Below are positions 20,081 to 34,364 of a stretch of 64,000 nucleotides of DNA, in pieces. Within the stretch, counting starts at the first letter, position 1, and each line of letters begins with the position of its first letter. The notes under the pieces were generated by a model. That model had not been told where the DNA came from. It made no database searches and was given only the letters and a program-made list of their open reading frames with translations. A program made the translations under genes and the position numbers. Source of the stretch: Alphaproteobacteria bacterium (lineage in GTDB: Bacteria; Pseudomonadota; Alphaproteobacteria; Bin95); assembly GCA_964291285.2 (NCBI GenBank), contig OZ219786.1, positions 1,248,001 to 1,312,000 of the forward strand, given 5' to 3'.

Positions 20081-20781
20081 GCCGGCCTCCCCGCACACGG
20101 CCGGGACGGCAGGCGGGACTGAAGGCCCGGCTCCGCACGGCGAAAGGACGCAAGACGGCTTCCACCCGCTGGCTACAGCGCCAGCTCAGCGACGCTTATG
20201 TGGCGGAAGCGAAACGGCTGGGCCTGCGGTCCCGCGCCGCCTTCAAGCTGATGCAGCTCGATGACCGTTTCCGCCTGTTGAAACGAGGGAGCACGGTGCT
20301 CGACCTCGGCGCGGCCCCCGGCGGCTGGACCCAGGTGGCGGTGGCCCGGGGCGCCGGGGCGGTGGTCGCGGTGGACCTCCAGACGATGGAGCCGGTTCCG
20401 GGCGCTTGCTGCCTGCTGCTCGATCTGGAGGACAGCGACGCCCCCGCGCGACTCGGCGCCGGCCTGCCGGACGGCGCCGATGTCGTGCTGAGCGATATGG
20501 CGCCGCGCACCACCGGACATGCGGCGACCGACCGGCTGCGCATCGTCGCGCTTGCGGAGCTGGCATACGATTCTGCACGCGCGTTGCTGCGGCCGGGCGG
20601 CGCCCTGGTTGTCAAGGTTTTTCAAGGGGGTGCGCACGAGGACCTGCTGAAAGCGCTGAAGCGGGACTTCGCCTTTGTGCGCCATGCGAAGCCGGATGCG
20701 AGCCGCAAGGAGTCCTCCGAGCTCTACCTCGTGGCGACGGGTTTTCGCGCGTTCGACACTGCGGCTTCACATTCCGGCTGA
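20077..20781 (+). CDS. rlmE: 23S rRNA Um2552 methyltransferase
   Basis: RSRAAFKL, DLGAAPGGW, VLSDMAP, KPDASRKESSE. Confidence 0.96.
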   Translation: MSRPPRTRPGRQAGLKARLRTAKGRKTASTRWLQRQLSDAYVAEAKRLGLRSRAAFKLMQLDDRFRLLKRGSTVLDLGAAPGGWTQVAVARGAGAVVAVDLQTMEPVPGACCLLLDLEDSDAPARLGAGLPDGADVVLSDMAPRTTGHAATDRLRIVALAELAYDSARALLRPGGALVVKVFQGGAHEDLLKALKRDFAFVRHAKPDASRKESSELYLVATGFRAFDTAASHSG

Positions 20782-20812
20782 GGCGGGTATAAGAAGGCGT
20801 CAACCCCGATGA

Positions 20813-22803
<1,991 letters not shown>

Positions 22804-23010
22804 TTCTGAAAAGTTGAAATAATTCCCGAAAATAGATTGATATGATAGATGATGTAATAGAATGAAGCGGGAGGAAGGAAACGGCATTCGCGGCGCGGCG
22901 AAGCCGCCTGTCGCTGTCCGGCCGCGCGCGAACCGCTGCTTGACTTGGACTGCCCGGTCGGAAACCATGGAAGCGGCAGGCCTTTGTGGCGGAGTCCGGC
23001 TGAAAGCGGG

Positions 23011-24081
23011 ATGTCGAAGCTGAAAACGGCAACTGGCGAAACCGCCCTTGAACGCGACCTTGCTTACCAGGCGGAAATCCTGCAGGGCGTTTCCCGCACC
23101 TTTGCGCTGACCATTCCCCAACTGCCCCCTCCGCTCCGGGACGCGGTCGGCAATGCCTATCTGCTCTGCCGGATCGCCGATACCATTGAGGACGAAGCTG
23201 CCCTCTCTGCGGGTCAAAAGCGCGAATTCTCCGAACGCTGGGTCGGCGTTGTCGAAGGCAGCGAGACTGCCGGGGCCTTTGCGCAGGACCTCGGCGCCCT
23301 GCTGACCCGTTCCACGACCGAGGCGGAACGCGAGCTCATCGCCAATGTCGACCGCGTCATGCGGATCACGGACAGCTTCTCCGCCCCGCAACGGCAGGCA
23401 ATGTTGCGCTGTGTGAAGATCATGACGCACGGCATGGTGGAATTTCAGGAAGGCGCCAGCCTCGAAGGGCTCAATGACCTCCAGCAGCTCGACCGCTACT
23501 GCTACCATGTCGCCGGCGTCGTCGGAGAAATGTTGACGGAGCTCTTCTGTGACTATTCAGAGGAAATCGACGCGCGGCGCGAGGAGCTCTTCGCCCTGTC
23601 GGCCTCCTACGGACAGGGCCTCCAGATGACCAACATCCTGAAGGACATATGGGAGGACCGGAGCCGCGGGGCGTGCTGGCTGCCGCGCAGCGTCTTTCTT
23701 TCGGCCGGCTTCGACCTCCGCTCGCTTGCGCCGGGCCAGGCCGATCCGGGGTTCGTCGAAGGGCTCAACAGGCTCATCGCGATCGCCGGCCAGCATCTTG
23801 CCAATGCGCTCCGCTACATCCTGCTCATACCGGCGCACGAGACGGGCATCCGCCGCTTCTGCCTCTGGGCGCTCGGCATGGCGGTGCTCACCCTGCGCCG
23901 CACCTACACGACACCGGCATTCGGGAGCGGCCAGGAGGTCAAGATATCGCGGCGCGCCGTGAAGGCGGTGGTCGTGACCACCAGCGCGCTGGCGCGCTCC
24001 GATGCGGCCCTGAAGATTCTCTTTGTCGGTCTCGGGCGCGGTCTTCCCCGCGTCCGGGAGGCGGGCGGCACGGCCGCATGA
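23011..24081 (+). CDS. Squalene synthase (single-step farnesyl-diphosphate farnesyltransferase type)
   Basis: [43 protein letters not shown] motifs. Confidence 0.85.
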
Positions 24082-25346
24082 TCCGGCGCTGCGGGGTCTT
24101 GCGGAGCGCCGCCGCCGCGCTGGCGCTTTCGGTTCCGGGCGCAGCGGCGCAAGCGGCGGATATCGAAGTTGAGCTGTCCGGCAGGTTCAGCATCGAGAGC
24201 CGCCTGTATCCCGACAGCGCGCTCCATTCCGGCCAGTGCTCCCATGCGGGCGGCTTCACCGCGAAGCCGGAACTCTATGCCGAGGACGAGGAGGGCCGCA
24301 GCCTCACGATCTCGCCCTTCTTCCGCTACGACAGCGCCGACCCGCGCCGCACCCATGCCGACCTCCGCGAAGCCTTCCTGCTGCTCTACGGCGAGGCCGG
24401 CGACGGCGAGTGGGAACTGCGCCTCGGCGTGGACCGGGTCGCCTGGGGCGTGGCGGAGGTGCGCAACATCGTCGATATCGTCAACCAGACGGACCTGGTC
24501 GAGCATCCCGACGAGAAGACCAAGCTCGGCCAGCCCATGGCGCACGGCACATGGTCCGCGGACTGGGGCGCGCTGGAATTGTTCCTCCTGCCCTGGCACC
24601 GCGAGCGCACCTATCCGGGCCGCGCGGGCCGGCTGCGCAGCGGCCTCGTCGTGGACCACGACAAGGCGACATACGACAGCGCCGCCGGGGAACGGCACAT
24701 GGACTGGGCGGTCCGCTACAGCGGAAGTTTCGGCCTCGTCGATCTCGGCCTCAGCTGGTTCGACGGCCAGAGCCGGGAACCGTCCCTGCGGCCCGCGGAA
24801 TTCCTGACGATTCCCGGGGTGAGACCGGTTCCGACGGCCCTGCATCCGCACTACGAGAAAATCCGCCAATTCGGGCTGGACGCGCAGCTCACCACCGGCC
24901 CCTGGTTGCTCAAGCTGGAGGCCATCCGCCGCCTCGGCGCGAGCAACCGACTGGTCGAGGAAGACGATTACGGCGCGTGGATACTCGGCGGCGAATACAG
25001 CCTGTATTCCGTCTTCGACACGGAGGCGGAAATCACCCTGCTGTCGGAATGGCACTGGGACGGGCGGGGGCCGGAGCGCGCGACCAACGCCTTCGAGAAC
25101 GACCTGTTCCTCGCCGTCCGCCTTGCGCTCAACGACGTCGAGGGCACCGAGTTCACGCTCAGCGTGGCGGAGGACCCGGACCATGCGGGCCGCGTGTTCG
25201 GCTTCGAGGCGAAGCGGCGGCTGGACGACAACTGGCTGCTGGAGCTCGAGGGCACGGCGTTCCACGGCGTCGACTGGCGCGGCGACGCCCTCTACGGCGT
25301 GCGCCGCGACAGCTTCATCGCCCTCAGCCTCGTCTACAACCTGTAG
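24078..25346 (+). CDS. Probable outer-membrane beta-barrel protein
   Basis: Signal peptide ending AAQA; amphipathic beta pattern; [27 protein letters not shown]; C-terminal YNL; ATGA overlap with squalene synthase. Confidence 0.7.
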
Positions 25347-26134
25347 CCGCCGGCAAGGCGCGCGGCGAAGTCTGTCATGGCGGGCATGACGGCGTCCCCG
25401 GCCTCGCGCCAGGGGGCATGGCCGCAGCCGGGCAGCAGCACGATGTCCGCCGGGCCGGACACCTGCGCGGCGATGCGGTCGGTCTGGGCGCGCGTGCCGT
25501 AGGGGTCGGCCTCGCCCTGGAAGGCCAGCAGCGGCGCCGTTACCGCCGGCAGGTAGTTTTCGATGTTCCAGTCGCGGAAGCGCGGGTCGAGCCATGCCAG
25601 GTTCCAGGCGTCGAAGGTCCCGGCGGCGTCCCGGTGCCAGCGGGCAAGCCGCCTGTCGAGGCCGCCCGTGTCGAAGGCGCGCCGGGCCTCCCCGATGGCG
25701 CGGATCGAGCAGTCCTCGACGAACACGTGCGGGGCCATGACGACCAGCCCGGCCACGGCGTCCGGGAAGGCGCCGGCATGGATGAGCGCGATGGAGCCGC
25801 CGTCGCTGTGGCCGACGAGCACCGGCCGCTCGATGCCGAGGGCGGCGAGGACCGCCGGCAGGCGCCGTTCGGCCTCGACATGCATGTAATCGAGCGGGAA
25901 CGCCCCGCCGGCCGGCAGCGACGACCCGCCATAGCCGGGCCGGGAATAGACCAGCGCGCCCGCGCCCGTTTCCGCCGCCGCCCGGTCGGGAAAATCGCGC
26001 CAGAGGGCCGCGCAGCCGAGCCCTTCATGCAGGAACACCAGCACCGGCAGGGCCGGGTCGCCCTCGATCCGGCGGTATTCGATCTCGCCACCGTCGAGGG
26101 CGAGCCGGCCGTCGAGGACCGGCGGACCGCTCAT
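25334..26134 (-). CDS. Alpha/beta hydrolase associated with box clusters
   Basis: FLHEGLG, GHSDGGSIAL, QGEADPYG, CGHAP; directly downstream of benzoate-CoA ligase. Confidence 0.85.
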   Translation of the reverse strand: MSGPPVLDGRLALDGGEIEYRRIEGDPALPVLVFLHEGLGCAALWRDFPDRAAAETGAGALVYSRPGYGGSSLPAGGAFPLDYMHVEAERRLPAVLAALGIERPVLVGHSDGGSIALIHAGAFPDAVAGLVVMAPHVFVEDCSIRAIGEARRAFDTGGLDRRLARWHRDAAGTFDAWNLAWLDPRFRDWNIENYLPAVTAPLLAFQGEADPYGTRAQTDRIAAQVSGPADIVLLPGCGHAPWREAGDAVMPAMTDFAARLAGGYRL

Positions 26135-27624
26135 GCCCTGAGCTTGTACCGCTGGATCTTGCCCGTCGCCGTCTTGGGCAGCTCGTCCACGAACTCGACC
26201 CAGCGCGGATATTTGTAGGCGGCAAGCCGGGCGCGCACGAAGTCCTGGAGCTCGGCCGCGCCGGCCTCCCTGCCCTCCTGCAGCACCACGAAGGCCTTGG
26301 GCTTGACGAGGCCGTCCGGGTCCTCCGCGCCGACCACCGCCGCCTCCAGCACCGCCTCATGCTTCAGCAGCGCGCCCTCCACCTCGAAGGGCGAGACATA
26401 GATGCCGCCGACCTTGAGCATGTCGTCGGCGCGCCCGGCGAAAGCGTAAACGCCGTTTTCGTCGCGGGTGTATTTGTCGCCGGTGCGCGTCCAGGCGCCC
26501 CGAAAGGTCTCGACCGAACGCTCGCGCCGGTTCCAGTAGAACACCGCGCTGGTCGGCCCCTTCACCTCCAGTGCGCCGAGCGCACCCGCGTCCTCGATCA
26601 CCCGGTCGTCGTCATCGACAAGGCGGACCTCGTAGCCCTCGACCGGGCGCCCGGACGCTCCCGGCGCGATGTCGCCGACGCGGTTGGTGATGAAGATATG
26701 CAGCATCTCGGTCGAGCCGAGGCCGTCCAGAATGTCCACGCCGACGGCCTCCTGCCAGCGGCGCAGGATTTCGGGCGGCAGCGCCTCGCCGGCGGAGACG
26801 GCAAGCCGCAATTCGTGCTCGCCCGGCCCCGGCGCCTCGCCGCTCGCAAGCAGCATGGCGAACAGGGTCGGCACGCCGAAGAAGATCGTGGGCCCCGCCT
26901 CGCGCAGCAGGCGGCAGATCGGCCCCGGCTCCGGAGGCCCTTCGAGCAGCACGGCGGTCGCGCCCGCCGCCATCGGGAAGGTCAGGCCGTTGCCGAGCCC
27001 GTAGGCGAAGAACAGCTTGGCGGCGGAGAACAGCACGTCGCCTTCGCTCACGCCCAGCGTCGGCCCGGCATAGAGTTCGGCCGTGCGCGCCATGTCGCCG
27101 TGGAGGTGCACCGCGCCTTTCGGCTGGCCCGTCGTGCCCGAGGTGTAGAGCCAGAAGCACATCTCGTCCTCGACGGTTTCGGCGGCTGAGAACACCGGGC
27201 TCTCGGGCGCAATCAGCGCTGCCAGCCCGCCGCCGTCCGGGATCACGCGGTCATGCAGGCCCTCGAAGACCGGGGCGAGGTTCGCCGAGACGAACGCCGC
27301 CTGCGCGCGCGCGTCGTGCAGCATGAAGGCGTAGTCGTCGCGGGTGAGCCGCGTGTTGACCGGAACCGGCACGACGCCCGCCTTGATGGCGCCGAGGAAA
27401 CAGGTGTGGAAGTCTACGGTGTCGTTGAGGCAGAGGAGGATGCGCTCCTCGCGCCGGATGCCGAGCCTGCCGAGCGCATGGGCGAACCGGCTCGTCGCCG
27501 CGTCGATGTCGGCGTAGCTGTGCGCGCCGCGGCTGTCGATCACGGCCGTCTTCGCGCCGCGCCCGGCCGCAAGGTTGCGCCCGATCAGGTCCGCCGCCGC
27601 GTTGTAACCGGCCATGTCGCTCAT
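26131..27624 (-). CDS. bclA: Benzoate-CoA ligase
   Basis: YNAAADLI, FWLYTSGTTG.PKG, AAKLFFAYGLGN, GSTEMLHIF, TGDKY, TATGKIQR. Confidence 0.9.
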   Translation of the reverse strand: MSDMAGYNAAADLIGRNLAAGRGAKTAVIDSRGAHSYADIDAATSRFAHALGRLGIRREERILLCLNDTVDFHTCFLGAIKAGVVPVPVNTRLTRDDYAFMLHDARAQAAFVSANLAPVFEGLHDRVIPDGGGLAALIAPESPVFSAAETVEDEMCFWLYTSGTTGQPKGAVHLHGDMARTAELYAGPTLGVSEGDVLFSAAKLFFAYGLGNGLTFPMAAGATAVLLEGPPEPGPICRLLREAGPTIFFGVPTLFAMLLASGEAPGPGEHELRLAVSAGEALPPEILRRWQEAVGVDILDGLGSTEMLHIFITNRVGDIAPGASGRPVEGYEVRLVDDDDRVIEDAGALGALEVKGPTSAVFYWNRRERSVETFRGAWTRTGDKYTRDENGVYAFAGRADDMLKVGGIYVSPFEVEGALLKHEAVLEAAVVGAEDPDGLVKPKAFVVLQEGREAGAAELQDFVRARLAAYKYPRWVEFVDELPKTATGKIQRYKLRA

Positions 27625-28085
27625 GCCTCCGCCACGGCGCTTTCATACCACGACCGCGCCCAGTCCGCCGCCTCGTCCTCGGGCAGGACGCCGGAGGACG
27701 CATTGTGGCGCATCGGCTCGCCCACGCGCCTTGCGCCGAGTTCGCTCAGGATGCGGTCGAAGGTCATGCCGCCGCCGCAGAAGGTGCGCGCATAGGTCAT
27801 GTCGCCAAGCGCAAAGAGGCCGTAGCGGACATGGGCGAGGTCGGGCCGCTCGCGCTCCAGCGCGTCGGCAAGCGCCTGGCCGTTGTCCGGCACGTCGCCC
27901 TGGCCGTAGGTGGAGCTGACCACGAGGTAGAGGCCGGGCGCGGCGAAGGCGCCCGCGTCGAGATCGTCCATCGGCCGGAGGTCCACCTCCACGCCTTCCT
28001 CCTCCAGCGCGGCCTGGACCTCTTCGGCGACGAGATCGGCCGTGCCGGTCATCGTCGCGACATAGATGGTGACAGTGCTGTTCAT
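27621..28085 (-). CDS. Flavodoxin (MioC/cindoxin-like)
   Basis: ATMTGTA FMN phosphate loop, STYGQGDVPDNG, FALGD..Y..FCGGG; ATG at 28085. Confidence 0.88.
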   Translation of the reverse strand: MNSTVTIYVATMTGTADLVAEEVQAALEEEGVEVDLRPMDDLDAGAFAAPGLYLVVSSTYGQGDVPDNGQALADALERERPDLAHVRYGLFALGDMTYARTFCGGGMTFDRILSELGARRVGEPMRHNASSGVLPEDEAADWARSWYESAVAEA

Positions 28086-28088
28086 ATG

Positions 28089-28121
28089 ATGCATTATATT
28101 TCCTGTGATGGAAGCCGCCAA
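28089..28121 (-). promoter_or_regulatory. Probable leaderless promoter with BoxR/BzdR-type operator for flavodoxin-bclA operon
   Basis: Minus strand TTGGCG-N17-TATAAT, 7 nt before ATG; contains CAGGAAATATAATGCAT. Confidence 0.65.
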
Positions 28122-28980
28122 GGAAAACCTCGCAGCGCCGCTCGGCGCAAGGCTGCGCACGCTCCGGGCGGCGCGCGGCATGAGCCGGCGCATCCTGGCG
28201 CGGGACAGCGCGGTCTCGGAACGCTATCTCGCGGAGTTGGAGAACGGAAGGGCGAACCCCTCCATCGGCGTGCTGGCGCGCATCGGGCTGGCCATCGGGG
28301 TGGATATTGCCGAGCTGTTCACGTCCTCCTCCCGCGATGCCGCTACCGCCCTGCTGGAGCGGCTGGGACCGGAAGACCGGGCCGCCGCCGGCGCGCTGCT
28401 GGAGCGCCATTTCGGCCGCGCCGCCGACAAGGCGGAACGGATCGCGCTGGTCGGTCTGCGCGGGGCGGGAAAGACCACCCTCGGCCGGCTGCTGGCGGAG
28501 CGCCTCGGCTGGCCCTTCGTCGAACTCACGCGCGAGATCGAGCGGGACTACGGCGCCGACGTCGCGGAAATTCTGGCCCTGGCGGGCCAGCCGGGCCTGC
28601 GGCGGCAGGAGCACCGGGCGCTGGGCCGCCTCGTGGAGGAACGGGAGCGCGCGGTGATCGCCGCGCCCGGCGGCATCGTGGCGGAGGCCGCAAGCCTCGA
28701 TCTGCTGCTCGCCCGGACGCATACCGTCTGGCTGACTGCCGCGCCCGAGGAGCACATGGCGCGCGTCGCCGCCCAGGGCGACCGGCGGCCGATGGCCGAC
28801 AACCCGGAAGCGATGGCCGACCTGCGCGCGATCCTCGCCGCCCGCAGCCCCGACTACGCCCGCGCCGACGCCCGCCTCGACACTTCAGGCCGGCCGCTCG
28901 AAGACTGCCTCGACGATCTGGAGCGCACCGCGCGCCGCATGGTCCGCGAAGGGTTGACCCCGGCCGGACAGGAAATATAG
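28108..28980 (+). CDS. boxR: BoxR/BzdR regulator (XRE HTH plus shikimate-kinase-like domain)
   Basis: VSERYLAELENGRANPS HTH; RIALVGLRGAGKTTLG; APGGIV; HMARV.AQGDRRPM. Confidence 0.92.
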   Translation: MEAAKENLAAPLGARLRTLRAARGMSRRILARDSAVSERYLAELENGRANPSIGVLARIGLAIGVDIAELFTSSSRDAATALLERLGPEDRAAAGALLERHFGRAADKAERIALVGLRGAGKTTLGRLLAERLGWPFVELTREIERDYGADVAEILALAGQPGLRRQEHRALGRLVEERERAVIAAPGGIVAEAASLDLLLARTHTVWLTAAPEEHMARVAAQGDRRPMADNPEAMADLRAILAARSPDYARADARLDTSGRPLEDCLDDLERTARRMVREGLTPAGQEI

Positions 28981-28985
28981 TGCAT
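28954..28985 (+). promoter_or_regulatory. Probable leaderless promoter with BoxR-type operator for boxCB operon
   Basis: TTGACC-N16-TATAGT, 6 nt before ATG 28988; contains CAGGAAATATAGTGCAT. Confidence 0.7.
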
Positions 28986-28987
28986 AT

Positions 28988-30610
28988 ATGATCGACAATG
29001 TGCCCATCGCCTACGACCGCGAGCCGGAGAGCTACCGGCACTGGTCGCTCGCCGTCGAGGGAGCCGTCGCCACGCTCACGCTCAAGGTGGATGAAGACGG
29101 GGGTCTCCGTCCGGGCTACCGGCTCAAGCAGAACTCCTACGATCTCGGCGTCGATATCGAGCTGAACGACGCGCTCAACCGGCTGCGTTTCGAGCATCCG
29201 CAGGTGCGCACGGTCATCGTCACCAGCGGCATGGAGCGCATGTTCTGCGCCGGGGCCAACATCTACATGCTAGGCCAGTCGAGCCATGCGGCGAAGGTGA
29301 ACTTCTGCCGCTTCACCAACGAGACCCGCAACTTCATGGAGGATGCGAGCCGGCACTCCGGCATCGCCTTCATCGCCGCCTGCAACGGCACGGCGGCCGG
29401 CGGCGGCTACGAGCTGGCGCTGGCCTGCGACGAGATCTGGCTGGTGGACGACCGGTCGAGCGCGGTCAGCCTGCCGGAAGTGCCGCTGCTGGGCGTGCTG
29501 CCGGGCACGGGCGGCCTGACGCGCATCACCGACAAGCGCCGCGTGCGCCGCGACCTCGCCGACGTGTTCTGCACCGACCCCGACGGCGCGCGCGGCCGCC
29601 GGGCGCTCGAATGGGGCCTGGTGGACCGCACGGCGCCGCCGCAGCGCTTCGAGGCCGCAGTGAAAGAGCGCGCGGAGGAACTCGCCGGCCGGCCCGGCCT
29701 GCCCGCCGGCGAGCCGGTGCCGCTCACGCCGCTGGACCGGCATGTGGAAGCGGACGGCTACCGCTACCCGAACGTGCGGGTGCGGATCGACGATGCGCGC
29801 CGGCTCGCGGAAATCACGGTCTCCGGTCCCGCCGCGCCGGTTGCGGTCGAACGCGCCGCCGGCTGGTGGCCGCTTGCCGCCGCGCGCGAGCTCGAAGACG
29901 CGGTGCTGATGCTGCGCACCAACCATGAGCAGGTCGGCGCCTGGGTGCTCAGGACCGAGGGCGACCCGGAGGCGCTGCTGGCGGTGGACGCGCTGCTGGC
30001 CGAAGGCGCGGAAACCGACCGGTTCCTCCGCGAGACCGTCGCCTGGTGGCGGCGGGCGCTCGCCCGGCTGGACGTGACCTCGCGCTCGCTGATCGCGCTC
30101 ATCGAGCCCGGCTCCTGCTTCGCCGGCCCGATGCTGGAACTGGCGCTCGCCGCCGACCGCAGCTTCATGTTCCTGCCCCTCGACGAGCCGGAGGCCGCGC
30201 CCCGGATCGCGCTCGGCGCGCTGAACCGGGCCGGCCTCGAAACGGCGAACGGGCGCACCCGCCTCGACTGCCGCTTCTCGGGGGCGGTGCCGGAATTCCA
30301 GGCCACCAGCTTCGGCCCGGAAGAGGCGCTGGCCGCCGGGCTCGTGACCTTCGCACCGGACGAACTCGACTGGGAGGACGAGGTGCGCATCGCGCTGGAG
30401 GAGCGCGCGGCGCTCTCGCCGGACGCGCTCACCGGCATGGAGGCGAGCCTGCGCTTCGGCGGCGCGGAGACGCTCGCCACCAAGATCTTCGGCCGGCTCT
30501 CCGCCTGGCAGAACTGGATATTCAGCCGCCCCAACGCCGTCGGCGAGGACGGGGCGCTCAAGCGTTTCGGCACCGGCACGAGGCCGGGCTTCGACTGGAG
30601 GCGTGTGTGA
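28988..30610 (+). CDS. boxC: 2,3-epoxybenzoyl-CoA dihydrolase
   Basis: YRHW, NSYDLGVDIEL.DA..RLRFEHP, FC.GANI, KVNFC.FTNETRN, RLSAWQNWIF.RPNAVG. Confidence 0.96.
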   Translation: MIDNVPIAYDREPESYRHWSLAVEGAVATLTLKVDEDGGLRPGYRLKQNSYDLGVDIELNDALNRLRFEHPQVRTVIVTSGMERMFCAGANIYMLGQSSHAAKVNFCRFTNETRNFMEDASRHSGIAFIAACNGTAAGGGYELALACDEIWLVDDRSSAVSLPEVPLLGVLPGTGGLTRITDKRRVRRDLADVFCTDPDGARGRRALEWGLVDRTAPPQRFEAAVKERAEELAGRPGLPAGEPVPLTPLDRHVEADGYRYPNVRVRIDDARRLAEITVSGPAAPVAVERAAGWWPLAAARELEDAVLMLRTNHEQVGAWVLRTEGDPEALLAVDALLAEGAETDRFLRETVAWWRRALARLDVTSRSLIALIEPGSCFAGPMLELALAADRSFMFLPLDEPEAAPRIALGALNRAGLETANGRTRLDCRFSGAVPEFQATSFGPEEALAAGLVTFAPDELDWEDEVRIALEERAALSPDALTGMEASLRFGGAETLATKIFGRLSAWQNWIFSRPNAVGEDGALKRFGTGTRPGFDWRRV

Positions 30611-32034
30611 TGGCAGTCGATTACCGGGGGCGCATCCCCAACAATATCGATCTCTCCGCCGACCGGCGGCTCCAGCGCGCGCTGGAGCACTGGCAGCCGC
30701 GCTTCCTGAACTGGTGGAGCGAGCTCGGGCCCGAGGGCTTCCAGGCGGCGGACGTCTATCTGCGCACCGCCACGGCGGTCGACGCCAGGGGCTGGGCCAG
30801 CTTCGGCTATGTGCGGATGCCGGAATACCGCTGGGGCATCTTCCTCGCCGAGCCCGAGAAGGACCGCACCATCGGCTTCGGCGACGAGATGGGCAAGCCG
30901 GTCTGGCCCGAGGTTCCGGGAGAGCACCGCGCCGCCCTCCGCCGCCTGATCGTGACGCAGGGCGACACCGAGCCCGCCTCCGTCGAGCAGCAGCGCCGCC
31001 TCGGCCACAGCTGCCCCTCGCTCTACGACCTGCGCAACCTCTTCCAGGTCAATGTCGAGGAGGGCCGCCACCTCTGGGCGATGGTCTATCTGCTGCACGC
31101 CCATTTCGGCCGCGACGGGCGCGAGGAAGCGGAGGAACTGCTCTACCGCCACTCCGGCGACCCGGACAATCCGCGCATCCTGACCACCTTCAACGAGCCG
31201 ATCGACGACTGGCTCTCCTTCTTCATGTTCACCTATTTCACCGACCGGGACGGCAAGTACCAGCTGAAGTCCTTCGCCGAGTCGGCCTTCGACCCGCTGG
31301 CGCGCACCTGCTCCTTCATGCTGACCGAGGAAGCCCACCACATGTTCGTCGGCGAGACCGGCATCGGGCGGATCGTCCGGCGCACGCTGGAGGTGATGCA
31401 GGCGCTCGGCACGGACGACCCCGACGCCGTGCGCGCCCAGGGCGCCATCGACCTGCCGACGCTCCAGCGTTACATCAATTTCTGGTTCTCCTCCTCACTC
31501 GACCTGTTCGGCTCCGAGACCTCGTCCAACGCCGCCACATATTTCGCCGCGGGCCTCAAGGGCCGGCCCGACGAGGCGACGTTCGAGGACCATGTGTGCC
31601 TCGATACCGCCGAGCGCATCGCGGTCCCCGGTGAAGCGGGCGGCGTCGCCGAGGAGGAAGTGCCGACCCGCAACGCGATGAACGAGATCACGCGCGGGCT
31701 CTATGTGAAGGACTGCGCCATCGGCATGACCCGCTGGAACCGGACGATAAAGCGCGCGGGCTTCGATGCCGAGCTCTTCCTGCCGTCCACGCGCTTCCGC
31801 CGCACCATCGGCCGCTGGGCCGGGGCCTCCGTCGCCCCCGACGGGACGCCGATGGCGGACGACCTCTACCGCAAGCGCCTGCCCGGCTGGCTGCCGACGG
31901 AGGAGGACAAGGCCTATGTCCGCTCGCTGATGCGCGCCGTCACCGAGCCCGGAAAGATGGCGGGCTGGATCGCCCCGCCTGCCCGCGGCATCGACGGCAA
32001 GCCGGTCGATTACGAATATGTGAAGCTGCATTGA
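30610..32034 (+). CDS. boxB: Benzoyl-CoA 2,3-epoxidase oxygenase subunit (di-iron)
   Basis: IPNNIDL, LIVTQGDTEPASVEQQR, VNVEEGRHLWAM, FTDRDGKYQL, EEAHHM. Confidence 0.97.
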   Translation: MAVDYRGRIPNNIDLSADRRLQRALEHWQPRFLNWWSELGPEGFQAADVYLRTATAVDARGWASFGYVRMPEYRWGIFLAEPEKDRTIGFGDEMGKPVWPEVPGEHRAALRRLIVTQGDTEPASVEQQRRLGHSCPSLYDLRNLFQVNVEEGRHLWAMVYLLHAHFGRDGREEAEELLYRHSGDPDNPRILTTFNEPIDDWLSFFMFTYFTDRDGKYQLKSFAESAFDPLARTCSFMLTEEAHHMFVGETGIGRIVRRTLEVMQALGTDDPDAVRAQGAIDLPTLQRYINFWFSSSLDLFGSETSSNAATYFAAGLKGRPDEATFEDHVCLDTAERIAVPGEAGGVAEEEVPTRNAMNEITRGLYVKDCAIGMTRWNRTIKRAGFDAELFLPSTRFRRTIGRWAGASVAPDGTPMADDLYRKRLPGWLPTEEDKAYVRSLMRAVTEPGKMAGWIAPPARGIDGKPVDYEYVKLH

Positions 32035-33008
32035 CGGCGCGTTTCGCCATCGCCGGGTCCGGCCCGGCGGGCTGCTACCTGGCGGACGCGCTTGCGAAGG
32101 CCGCGCCCGGCGCCGTCATCGACGTGTTCGAGCGGCTGGACGAACCCTTCGGCCTGGTGCGCTTCGGCGTGGCCCCGGACCACGAGGCGACCCGCGCCAT
32201 TTCCCGCGTGCTGCGCCGGCCGTTCGACAAGGGCGCGGCGCGGCTCCATCTCGGCGTCGAGGTCGGCCGCGACATAAGCCTCGCCGCGCTGCGCCGCGAC
32301 TATGACGCGGTGGCGCTGGCGACCGGCGCGCCGGTGGACCGCAGGCTGGACGTGCCCGGCGAGGAACTGGCCGAACCCTCGGGCCGCTTCATCCGCTGGA
32401 TCAACGGCCACCCCGAAGCCGTCCCGCCCGCCCGCCTCGCCGGGGCAAGGCGCGCGGTCGTCATCGGCGCCGGCAACGTGGCGCTCGACGCGGTCCGCCT
32501 GCTGGCGAAACACCGGGAAATCGGCTGCCTGAACCCGCTGGCGCTGGAGCGCATCGACCTGCTGGTCCGCGGCGGCCCGGAAGACGTGCGGTTCACGCCC
32601 TCCGAACTCGTCGAAATCGGCGACCTCGCGACGGCATGGCCCCAACTGGACGCCTTCGACGACGCGACCGGCGAGGCGGCCGCCCTGCTGAAGGAGTTTG
32701 CAGCCCGCCCGCCGGGCCGCGGCATCCCGATCCGCTTCCATTTCCGCACGCAGGCGACGGCCTTCCTCGGCGCAGGCCAGCTGGAAGCGGTCGAAACGGA
32801 CCGCGGCGCGCTCCCGGCCGATCTCGCCGTGACCTGCATCGGCTACGAGAAGGCCGCTATAGACGGCGTCTGGCCCACCGGCCCGGAGTCGGAGCCCGGT
32901 CTCTACGCCGTCGGCTGGGCCGCCCGCGGCCCGACGGGAACGATCCCGACGAACCGCGCAGAAGCCCGCGCTCTCGCCCCAAGGATGACTGCCGGCCTCG
33001 AACTGTAG
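32031..33008 (+). CDS. Compact adrenodoxin-reductase/FprA-type FAD- and NADP-dependent reductase
   Basis: IAGSGPAG, PFGLVRFGVAPDH, VVIGAGNVALD, TCIGY, GWAARGPTGTI; TTGA overlap with boxB; no CxxCxxCxxxC motif. Confidence 0.85.
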   Translation: MTARFAIAGSGPAGCYLADALAKAAPGAVIDVFERLDEPFGLVRFGVAPDHEATRAISRVLRRPFDKGAARLHLGVEVGRDISLAALRRDYDAVALATGAPVDRRLDVPGEELAEPSGRFIRWINGHPEAVPPARLAGARRAVVIGAGNVALDAVRLLAKHREIGCLNPLALERIDLLVRGGPEDVRFTPSELVEIGDLATAWPQLDAFDDATGEAAALLKEFAARPPGRGIPIRFHFRTQATAFLGAGQLEAVETDRGALPADLAVTCIGYEKAAIDGVWPTGPESEPGLYAVGWAARGPTGTIPTNRAEARALAPRMTAGLEL

Positions 33009-33212
33009 CCGGCGCGGATTTTCGCCGGCCACCCTTCCCGGTCTCCGCCATGGAAAACCCGAATATCCGACCCGTGGAGGCTACTCCATGGGGGTTTCCG
33101 GCTGCATCGTCGCATTGCTTCCGCCCACCTGCATTTCCGCGACTCGCAGCCGCGTTGAATGCGGCGGCGCAAGGAATAGGTTGCCTGTTGCTACGAAACG
33201 CTGCGAGACGCC

Positions 33213-34364
33213 ATGAAGCCGACTGTTCGTCCCGCCAATCCGAACTTCTCCTCCGGGCCCTGTACCAAGCGGCCGGGATGGACGCCGGCCGTTCTCGCCG
33301 ACGCTTTGGTGGGGCGTTCCCATCGCTCCGCGCCCGGCAAGGACAAGCTGGCGGAGGTTATCGACAGGAGCCGCCGGCTGCTCGGCATGCCGGAGGACTG
33401 GCGGCTCGCGATCGTGCCCGCCTCCGATACCGGCGCCGTCGAGATCGCGCTCTGGTCCCTGCTCGGCGCGCGCGGCGTCGATGTGCTGGCGTGGGAGAGC
33501 TTCGGCGCGAGCTGGGCCCTCGATGTCCGGGACCATCTCGGCATCGCGGACGTGCGCCTGCTGGAAGCCGGATACGGCGACCTGCCCGACCTGTCGGAAG
33601 CGGATTCCGGCCGTGACCTCGTGTTCGTGTGGAACGGCACCACCTCCGGTGTCTGCCTGCCCGATGGTGAGTGGATCGCCGAAGACCGGCGCGGCCTCGC
33701 GATCTGCGACGCCACATCGGCCGTGTTCGGCATCGAGATGCCCTGGTCCCGGCTCGATGTCGTAACCTGGTCCTGGCAAAAGGCCATCGGCGGCGAGGGG
33801 GCGCACGGCATGCTGGCGCTCGGCCCGCGCGCGGTGGAGCGGCTGCTGTCCTGGACGCCGACGCGCCCGCTGCCGAAAGTCTTCCGGCTGACCCGCAGCG
33901 GCGCGCTCATCGAGGGCGTCTTCCGCGGCGAGACGCTGAACACGCCCTCCATGCTGTGCGTCGAGGACGCGCTCGATGCGCTGGCCTGGGTGGCGAGTGT
34001 GGGCGGCCTTGCCGGGGCCGTCGCGCGCACCCGGGCCAATGCCGCCGTCATCGGGGAGTGGGTGGCCCGGACCGGCTGGATCGACTTCCTCGCCCGCGAC
34101 CCGGCGGCGCGCTCGCCGACATCGGTCTGCCTCGCCTTCGCCGATCCCCGGGTCGCCGGCCTGCCGGAGGATCGACGGAGGGTCTTCGTGCAGGCGTTGG
34201 CGGCCCGGCTCGACGCCGAGGGCGCGGCGCATGACATCGCCAACCATCGCGATGCGCCGCCGAGCCTGCGCATCTGGGCCGGCCCCACGGTCGAGCGCAG
34301 CGACCTGGAGGCGCTCATGCCCTGGCTGGACTGGGCGTTCGAGGCCGAGGTCGGAAAGCTCTGA
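33213..34364 (+). CDS. serC: Phosphoserine aminotransferase (alphaproteobacterial/Methanosarcina type)
   Basis: NFSSGPCTKRPGW, WNGTTSGV, SWQKAIGGEGAHG, LRIWAG. Confidence 0.95.
   Translation: MKPTVRPANPNFSSGPCTKRPGWTPAVLADALVGRSHRSAPGKDKLAEVIDRSRRLLGMPEDWRLAIVPASDTGAVEIALWSLLGARGVDVLAWESFGASWALDVRDHLGIADVRLLEAGYGDLPDLSEADSGRDLVFVWNGTTSGVCLPDGEWIAEDRRGLAICDATSAVFGIEMPWSRLDVVTWSWQKAIGGEGAHGMLALGPRAVERLLSWTPTRPLPKVFRLTRSGALIEGVFRGETLNTPSMLCVEDALDALAWVASVGGLAGAVARTRANAAVIGEWVARTGWIDFLARDPAARSPTSVCLAFADPRVAGLPEDRRRVFVQALAARLDAEGAAHDIANHRDAPPSLRIWAGPTVERSDLEALMPWLDWAFEAEVGKL

Follow-up and report, generated by a model that had tools for sequence, protein, structure and literature searches.

In characterised BoxAB epoxidase systems, BoxA is a reductase in which an FNR portion is fused with two [4Fe-4S] clusters. 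The cytochrome P450cin is served by a pair of proteins, a reductase and an FMN-containing flavodoxin (CinB and cindoxin), and the cindoxin reductase CinB resembles adrenodoxin reductase (AdR). In this study, we analysed a window of 64,000 nt (the whole stretch of DNA considered here: positions 1,248,001 to 1,312,000 of contig OZ219786.1, assembly GCA_964291285.2, from an alphaproteobacterium) that contains a box gene cluster without boxA. The gene that follows boxB in this cluster, adr, encodes an AdR/FprA-type flavoenzyme of 325 aa that is free of iron-sulfur (Fe-S) motifs, and a flavodoxin gene, fld, heads the divergent bclA operon. On the basis of comparisons among box loci, we consider that a flavodoxin, and not BoxA, might be the common physiological reductant of BoxB across the Alphaproteobacteria and in at least one genome of another class, and that a dedicated Fe-S-free chain might operate here through a minimal 325-aa AdR; to this combined reading we give a little less than an even chance.

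According to general knowledge of the pathway and to the part of PMC4498308 that treats it, BoxB is the sole enzyme of the Box regulon that needs an external reductant. The same part of that paper describes BoxA as being required only in small amounts and as binding transiently. A cluster that lacks boxA is read as incomplete or impaired in the relevant portion of PMC10803450, and Ruegeria pomeroyi is reported with boxABC in bioRxiv 10.64898/2026.06.26.734754, which fits the BoxA-positive minority described below. A literature search, which did not cover the primary BoxAB papers or the supplementary tables of PMC10803450, yielded no publication in which box clusters are connected with a flavodoxin or with an AdR-type reductase. 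An earlier sequence-based reading of this DNA (hereafter, the original prediction) knew of no characterised example.

How does the window compare with these systems? It resembles the BoxAB epoxidase clusters of Aromatoleum (Azoarcus) evansii and the Burkholderiales in that BoxB, BoxC, BoxR and BclA all score above the NCBIfam cut-offs and the operons diverge around boxR, and the reaction is expected to be identical. It differs from them in that the genome is without BoxA, an Fe-S-free AdR-type FAD protein is encoded after boxB, a flavodoxin gene heads the bclA operon, and BoxB forms part of a separate clade with strong support (SH-aLRT 100, stem 0.34). With the P450cin chain of Citrobacter braakii (CinB and CinC), the window would share a separate NAD(P)H-dependent flavoprotein reductase and a small FMN carrier for an oxygenase, whereas the terminal enzyme in the window is a di-iron epoxidase and not a P450. 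The window AdR has the sequence characteristics, the fold and both nucleotide-binding motifs of adrenodoxin reductase and FprA. However, it is shorter by approximately 130 residues, with the C-terminal segment and a portion of the NADP domain missing, carries RGGP for RRGP, and presumably has a flavodoxin as its partner in place of a [2Fe-2S] or 7Fe ferredoxin. The new element would be a complete Fe-S-free chain in which a minimal AdR-type reductase is coupled to boxB, the mechanism being proposed by comparison only.

Results

Organisation of the cluster and absence of boxA

The G+C content of the window is approximately 70%, and its box genes form two divergent groups between 25.3 and 33.0 kb, with fld, bclA and abh reading leftward and boxR, boxC, boxB and adr reading rightward (Table 1). 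The original prediction placed the flavodoxin first in the divergent bclA operon, and it is the head gene of fld-bclA-abh; the layout has to be corrected in that boxR sits between the flavodoxin gene and boxC, the start codons of fld and boxR being separated by 19 bp. BoxB carries the motifs EEGRH and EEAHH, and boxB is a single-copy gene in this genome. At the far end of the rightward group, adr begins with a TTG codon within CATTGACG, overlapping the TGA stop codon of boxB; judged from this sequence, adr is translationally coupled to boxB. Downstream of adr, a gap of 205 bp precedes housekeeping genes (serA-like, hisZ-like and purA).

Is a boxA gene present elsewhere in the genome? No boxA was found in the 6.13-Mb, five-contig, 100%-complete genome, where TIGR03224, with a cut-off of 459.2 bits, gave a best match of 31.7 bits, so that the proposal of a BoxA-less system is borne out by the genome search. 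The search is effective, because TIGR03224 detected BoxA at 500-750 bits beside boxB in other genomes. BoxA was likewise absent from all five tested genomes with a related adr locus.

When each species, represented by a single genome, was scanned for the 325-aa AdR, 79 loci were obtained. Seventeen of them, all from metagenome-assembled genomes of uncultured Alphaproteobacteria or Rhodospirillales, encode a 325-aa protein that is 78-93% identical to the window AdR; the remaining 62 show at most 42% identity, and none is near box genes. In each of the 17 related loci adr begins at the end of boxB, and the junction CATTGACG is identical in all 17. In the 15 of these loci with sufficient flanking sequence, fld-bclA was always found upstream, and boxR was found in 14. 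The combination of box genes, flavodoxin and adr is therefore a conserved feature, and it is probably functional. In nearly all flavodoxin modules (the window; L197, L199-L203, L205-L209), we observed that abh, which is weakly PcaD-like, comes after fld or bclA.

The two flavoproteins

In a PDB sequence search, the 325-aa protein proved homologous to adrenodoxin reductase (1cjc, E = 3.2e-37) and to FprA of M. tuberculosis (1lqt, E = 1e-33). Its translation contains three cysteines and no CxxCxxCxxxC motif. Coordinates, PDB matches and translation thus all agree with the original prediction of an AdR/FprA-type gene that overlaps the boxB stop and is devoid of [4Fe-4S] motifs. An AlphaFold2 model built from a 66-sequence alignment was confident (pLDDT 87.9, pTM 0.84), and its best Foldseek matches were FprA and AdR (TMq 0.85-0.90, E ~1e-27; TMq 0.88-0.90 for FprA). 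The motifs of the AdR family, namely the FAD motif GxGxxG, the NADP motif GxGxxA and the C-terminal GW..RGP.G.I.T, are kept and are invariant across the 66 sequences (G9, G11, G14, G146, G148, A151, G295, W296, R299, G300, G303, I305 and T307). The nearest relatives outside its own clade, at 45-50% identity, have approximately 415 aa; within the clade, the length of 325 aa is constant. The median pairwise dN/dS of adr in the related loci was 0.17, close to the values of fld (0.15), boxR (0.15), boxC (0.13), bclA (0.12) and boxB (0.11). These values point to purifying selection on all of these genes, and adr is hence a maintained gene.

The closest solved structure to the window flavodoxin is MioC (2hna, 2.6e-23), with cindoxin (4oxx, 2.4e-19) as the fifth-best PDB match. 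The FMN loops TMTGTA and STYGQGDVPDN show no variation among 28 flavodoxin sequences, and LGD.TY is conserved. Because its scores lie below the NCBIfam equivalog cut-offs (116.8 bits against 160 for the MioC model and 104.2 against 158 for the PRK08105 flavodoxin model), we regard it as a relative of MioC and not as an equivalog. A prediction of the BoxB-flavodoxin complex from their own alignments (27 and 28 rows) scored 0.49 (runs 0.32, 0.53 and 0.49), which amounts to weak support and is not counted as evidence here. In this prediction, the best of three controls scored 0.00, at least 42% of the contacts were common to the runs, and the pLDDT of the partner was at least 86. Among 80 solved complexes, 58 reach the mark used for such predictions, as do 2 of 110 mismatches; scores of 0.60 or below comprise seven of the 80 solved complexes and both of these mismatches.

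Distribution of boxA, flavodoxin and AdR-type genes in the class

Of 401 genomes sampled evenly across the class, 80 have boxB, including that of the window (these boxB and boxA tallies include one genome flagged as unpublished, G245). Among the other 79, boxA was present above the cut-off in 14 and lacking in 65; four of the latter had only FNR-like matches of approximately 80 bits. Loss of BoxA is thus not a peculiarity of one lineage, and it prevails among the alphaproteobacterial boxB genomes sampled.

We then considered the surroundings of boxB, approximately 7 kb on each side in 78 genomes, by six-frame HMM and motif scans. BoxA adjoins boxB in 14 of the 78 loci, and these BoxA genes are the sole ORFs with a CxxCxxCxxxCP motif between -5 and +4 kb of boxB; in the same interval, no other ORF that is FNR-like or has a 4Fe-4S motif was found around any BoxA-less boxB. 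A flavodoxin gene is present in 18 loci, diverging from boxR at 2.4-3.6 kb upstream of boxB in 17 and lying directly after boxB in one (L124). In none of the 78 loci do boxA and the flavodoxin occur together, and no flavodoxin lies within 7 kb of boxB in the 14 loci with adjacent boxA.

Searching whole genomes, we found a flavodoxin at least 46% identical to that of the window in 30 of 78 boxB genomes, in 27 of which it is arranged head-to-head with boxR. Thirteen of these flavodoxins lie outside the loci first examined: ten adjoin boxR, in most cases with bclA and abh coming next, two are beside abh only and one is on a short contig. In a quick LG+G4 tree of BoxB (75 rows), the window sequence belongs to the separate clade noted above, which comprises 23 rows, and most BoxA loci fall in another clade. 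According to the genome-wide searches, 19 of the 23 genomes in the window's clade possess the flavodoxin.

What lies beside boxB where both boxA and the flavodoxin are missing? When 79 ORFs situated downstream of boxB at such loci were tallied by Pfam family, no redox-partner family was recurrent among the first 25 of 87 families (DAO matched two members). This tally depended on ORF calling that is unreliable in lower-GC loci, as the flavodoxin of L124 was missed, and it is superseded by the six-frame scans. No redox partner was found among the boxB neighbours in G177, G387, G239 and G068. In G177, which belongs to the family of the window's genome (locus L164), boxB is in the BoxA-type clade with no boxA, boxC, flavodoxin or AdR gene nearby, and its neighbours are a glutamine synthetase gene, an FAA-hydrolase-like gene and an MFS transporter gene. 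Four genomes of one genus (G448, G557, G676 and G701; 7-9 Mb) have boxB at 917-942 bits and no boxA over the cut-off; of these, G448 and G701 were searched for a close flavodoxin, and neither has one.

Other arrangements at BoxA-less boxB genes

In three genomes of family f94 (G263, G658 and G687), a flavodoxin gene either follows boxB at a distance of 34-81 bp or overlaps the boxB stop codon. These flavodoxins are 30-40% identical to that of the window, and the gene order boxC-boxB-fld-(thioesterase)-boxR is the canonical alphaproteobacterial order with the flavodoxin in the position of boxA. Three other sampled genera of the family have boxA, and BoxB of G263 sits within the BoxA-type clade. 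Beyond the class, six of seven boxB genomes sampled from the phylum have an adjacent boxA; the seventh, G638, has no boxA, its BoxB scores like that of the window, and a 47%-identical flavodoxin is encoded 2.9 kb upstream of boxB.

AdR-type genes near boxB were also encountered outside the window's clade. In G358, from another family, a gene for a 369-aa AdR starts 6 bp after boxB, and this protein, too, is without the C-terminal segment and carries RGGP. In G374 and G248, full-length AdR-type genes occur 0.6 and 1.3-1.5 kb downstream of boxB. In the AdR tree, the latter two belong to a different subfamily from the window clade and G358 (a starred split with a support of 99), which implies at least two recruitments of AdR-type genes; the grouping of G358 with the window clade is weakly supported (94, unstarred).

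Promoter-like sequences around boxR

A scan of positions 25200-33400 with the sigma-70 consensus yielded four promoter-like sites where 0.4 would be expected. The site preceding boxC overlaps the 3' end of boxR, and a weaker, third site has its end 7 nt ahead of the boxR start codon. The regions before fld and boxC are identical in approximately 21 of 23 bases, including TGCA directly after the -10 box; in the related loci, TATA(A/G)TGCA precedes fld in 14 of 15 and TATA(A/G)TGCAT precedes boxC in 13 of 15. The near-identity that the original prediction attributed to an operator is therefore real, but what is repeated appears to be largely a duplicated promoter, that is, a pair of sigma-70-like promoter regions and not a plain operator. 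BoxR/BzdR sites are known to contain TGCA, and a BoxR site may be embedded in the duplicated promoter. Since two near-identical promoters flank boxR, fld-bclA-abh and boxC-boxB-adr are probably co-regulated by BoxR, a regulation deduced here from the sites themselves.

The -10 boxes of the fld, boxC and boxR sites end 6-7 nt from the start codons (window 28069-28121 and 28954-28992), and all three predicted transcripts would therefore be leaderless. Given the spacing of the fld and boxR start codons, each of the two predicted promoters would lie inside the other gene. Logan contigs that are 90-99% alike to the window and come from relatives occur in three metatranscriptomic runs, which bear the labels marine, sponge and coral metagenome: a 160-nt contig spans the boxB-adr junction (31984-32139), one spans the fld and boxR starts (27882-28268), and one lies on the 3' end of adr. 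Such contigs cannot show transcription, as metatranscriptomic libraries may contain DNA, and they are not used as expression evidence.

Discussion

We propose that the cluster might encode a three-component, iron-sulfur-free benzoyl-CoA 2,3-epoxidase system. The short AdR/FprA-type flavoenzyme would accept a hydride from NAD(P)H through FAD and reduce the MioC/cindoxin-like, FMN-binding flavodoxin, which would pass electrons one at a time to the BoxB di-iron centre. Benzoyl-CoA would then be epoxidised by BoxB, BoxC would open the ring, and BoxA would have been displaced by the flavodoxin and the AdR-type protein. The electron-transfer steps, the cofactors and the nucleotide preference in this scheme are deduced from gene content, synteny, the absence of boxA, selection, fold and co-occurrence, all of which were observed directly. 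That the flavodoxin donates electrons to BoxB seems likely to us, because a reductant is required by BoxB alone among the regulon's enzymes and because the flavodoxin is the one redox protein that is recurrent in BoxA-less settings and can take the position of boxA. If this step holds, the coupled short AdR is rather probably its NAD(P)H-dependent reductase, although the comparative data favour the flavodoxin link over the reductase link. For the full chain from NAD(P)H through the short AdR and the flavodoxin to BoxB, we consider the chances to be roughly balanced.

Which observations weigh against this proposal, and what else might explain the locus? An AdR-type gene is near boxB in only 4 of the 78 loci examined and in none of the other 74, and 14 of the 18 flavodoxin loci are without one. 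The replacement of BoxA by a reductase and a flavodoxin, as originally predicted, accordingly gains from the recurrence of the flavodoxin, its occupation of the boxA position and the coupling of adr to boxB in 17 of 17 loci, and loses from this rarity. AdR-type genes are also common, occurring in 49 of the 79 boxB genomes and mostly unlinked to box genes, and the boxB-linked adr is the sole AdR-type gene in the window's genome, so that it could also be a general reductase; the linked gene is likewise the only one in G317. These points favour the view that the flavodoxin is the BoxB donor and that the AdR-like enzyme is a general NAD(P)H:flavodoxin/ferredoxin reductase that merely happens to be located after boxB. 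We regard this as unlikely, though it deserves some weight, because it does not account for a TTG/TGA overlap that is identical at all 17 species loci, for the second short AdR 6 bp after boxB in G358, or for the recruitment of a different AdR subfamily near boxB in G374 and G248; in addition, adr is followed by a gap and by unrelated housekeeping genes. The short protein itself raises doubts. It does not have the full-length AdR/FprA architecture (approximately 415-460 aa with the C-terminal segment), being without the C-terminal ~60 residues and a stretch of ~11 residues in the NADP domain of its 415-aa relatives, and it has RGGP where the relatives have RRGP, the 2'-phosphate motif of AdR-type enzymes. 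Its activity and nucleotide preference are therefore uncertain. Does this mean that adr is what is left of a full-length gene that has been truncated and is decaying? The missing C-terminal and internal stretches would fit such a history, which we nevertheless consider very improbable: the length is kept across the clade, the dN/dS indicates constraint, all cofactor motifs are invariant, the structural model is confident, and a second short form follows boxB in G358. A pseudogene reading of adr was rejected on the same dN/dS, motifs and model.

A further possibility is that neither protein reduces BoxB, which would be served by unlinked housekeeping redox proteins, the flavodoxin and the AdR having another role in the pathway or none. 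A close homologue of the flavodoxin is missing from 37 of the 64 BoxA-less genomes that were searched, and these 37 have no redox gene near boxB; together with the many loci that lack a nearby AdR gene, they make it evident that BoxB can be serviced by unlinked donors. According to the portion of PMC4498308 cited above, BoxA acts in catalytic amounts and binds transiently, and housekeeping reductases might therefore suffice. The predicted mutual exclusivity of boxA and flavodoxin, which holds at every locus examined, also fails at the level of the genome, where three of the 14 BoxA-positive genomes hold a flavodoxin elsewhere (G077, G178 and G269); boxB is present more than once in G077 and G178, and the flavodoxin of G178 belongs to the second cluster. 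Against the unlinked-donor explanation, the regulon contains no further enzyme that depends on a reductant. In addition, 27 of the 30 genomes with the flavodoxin have it tied to boxR or boxB, it takes the boxA position in three more, and it is concentrated in particular BoxB clades, being present in 19 of the 23 rows of the window's clade. We judge this explanation to be improbable, and slightly more so than that of a general reductase.

If the proposed chain from the short AdR through the flavodoxin to BoxB is correct, it would constitute a three-component di-iron epoxidase, possibly as an adaptation to low iron, and a PaaA/BoxB-type di-iron epoxidase supplied by a flavodoxin, which in turn receives its electrons from a minimal AdR-type enzyme, would represent a new arrangement of redox partners for this enzyme class. 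Many box pathways scored as 'incomplete' for want of boxA would then be functional. As boxA is used as a pathway marker and 65 of 79 boxB genomes are without it, aerobic benzoyl-CoA degradation may be under-called in annotation. BoxA has apparently been displaced repeatedly, by the flavodoxin module, by a flavodoxin in the boxA position and in two recruitments of AdR-type genes. Such displacement would represent a clean case in which flavoproteins have non-orthologously replaced an Fe-S protein.

Additional features of the window and of other box loci

The coordinates of the genes and promoter-like sites of the window, together with those of two families found in other box loci, are listed in Table 1.

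Table 1. Coordinates of the box cluster genes and promoter-like sites in the window, and of two gene families at other box loci
Feature	Position	Strand	Evidence or remark
abh, alpha/beta-hydrolase	25334..26134	-	Pfam Abhydrolase_6 1.3e-15; last gene of fld-bclA-abh
bclA, benzoate-CoA ligase	26131..27624	-	NCBIfam TIGR02262 683 bits, cut-off 375
fld, MioC/cindoxin-like short-chain flavodoxin, 154 aa	27621..28085	-	PF00258 93.5 bits vs 25
fld-operon promoter-like site TTGGCG-17-TATAAT	28093..28121	-	10/12 matches; -10 ends 7 nt before fld ATG
boxR, XRE-HTH + shikimate-kinase-like regulator	28105..28980	+	NF006015 337.5 bits, cut-off 204; Pfam SKI, HTH_31
boxC-boxB-adr promoter-like site TTGACC-16-TATAGT	28954..28981	+	10/12 matches; -10 ends 6 nt before boxC ATG
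boxC	28988..30610	+	TIGR03222 794.5 bits, cut-off 712.3
boxB, di-iron benzoyl-CoA 2,3-epoxidase oxygenase component	30610..32034	+	TIGR03225 750.2 bits, cut-off 499.1
adr, short adrenodoxin-reductase/FprA-type flavoenzyme, 325 aa, Pyr_redox_2	32031..33008	+	PDB 1cjc, 1lqt matches
Peroxiredoxin (family f64)	L190:6201-6863; L191:8708-9217	-; +	AhpC-TSA 1.1e-30 in L190; L191 by clustering with L190 only
PnbB-family cluster c8	L154:3768-4238; 11 other loci	+	

To the left of the box genes (window 20612-25595) are several long overlapping ORFs of 409-660 aa, on both strands, with no Pfam match at 1e-5. Among BoxA-less genomes that also have no flavodoxin, a 1-Cys peroxiredoxin gene follows boxB by 135-290 bp in two genomes of one genus (family f64), and in G068 an ORF of the DUF6306 family (147 aa, 1.2e-18; L192:8391-8834, + strand) overlaps the end of boxB. 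A Usg-like protein of 99 aa (PF06233, 5.7e-37; L188:8724-9023, + strand; also in L185) is encoded between boxB and a full-length AdR gene in two genomes of one genus. Finally, a PnbB-family protein (~155 aa, 4-hydroxylaminobenzoate lyase family, 4.9e-46) is recurrent in box clusters, and its gene often adjoins fld or bclA.

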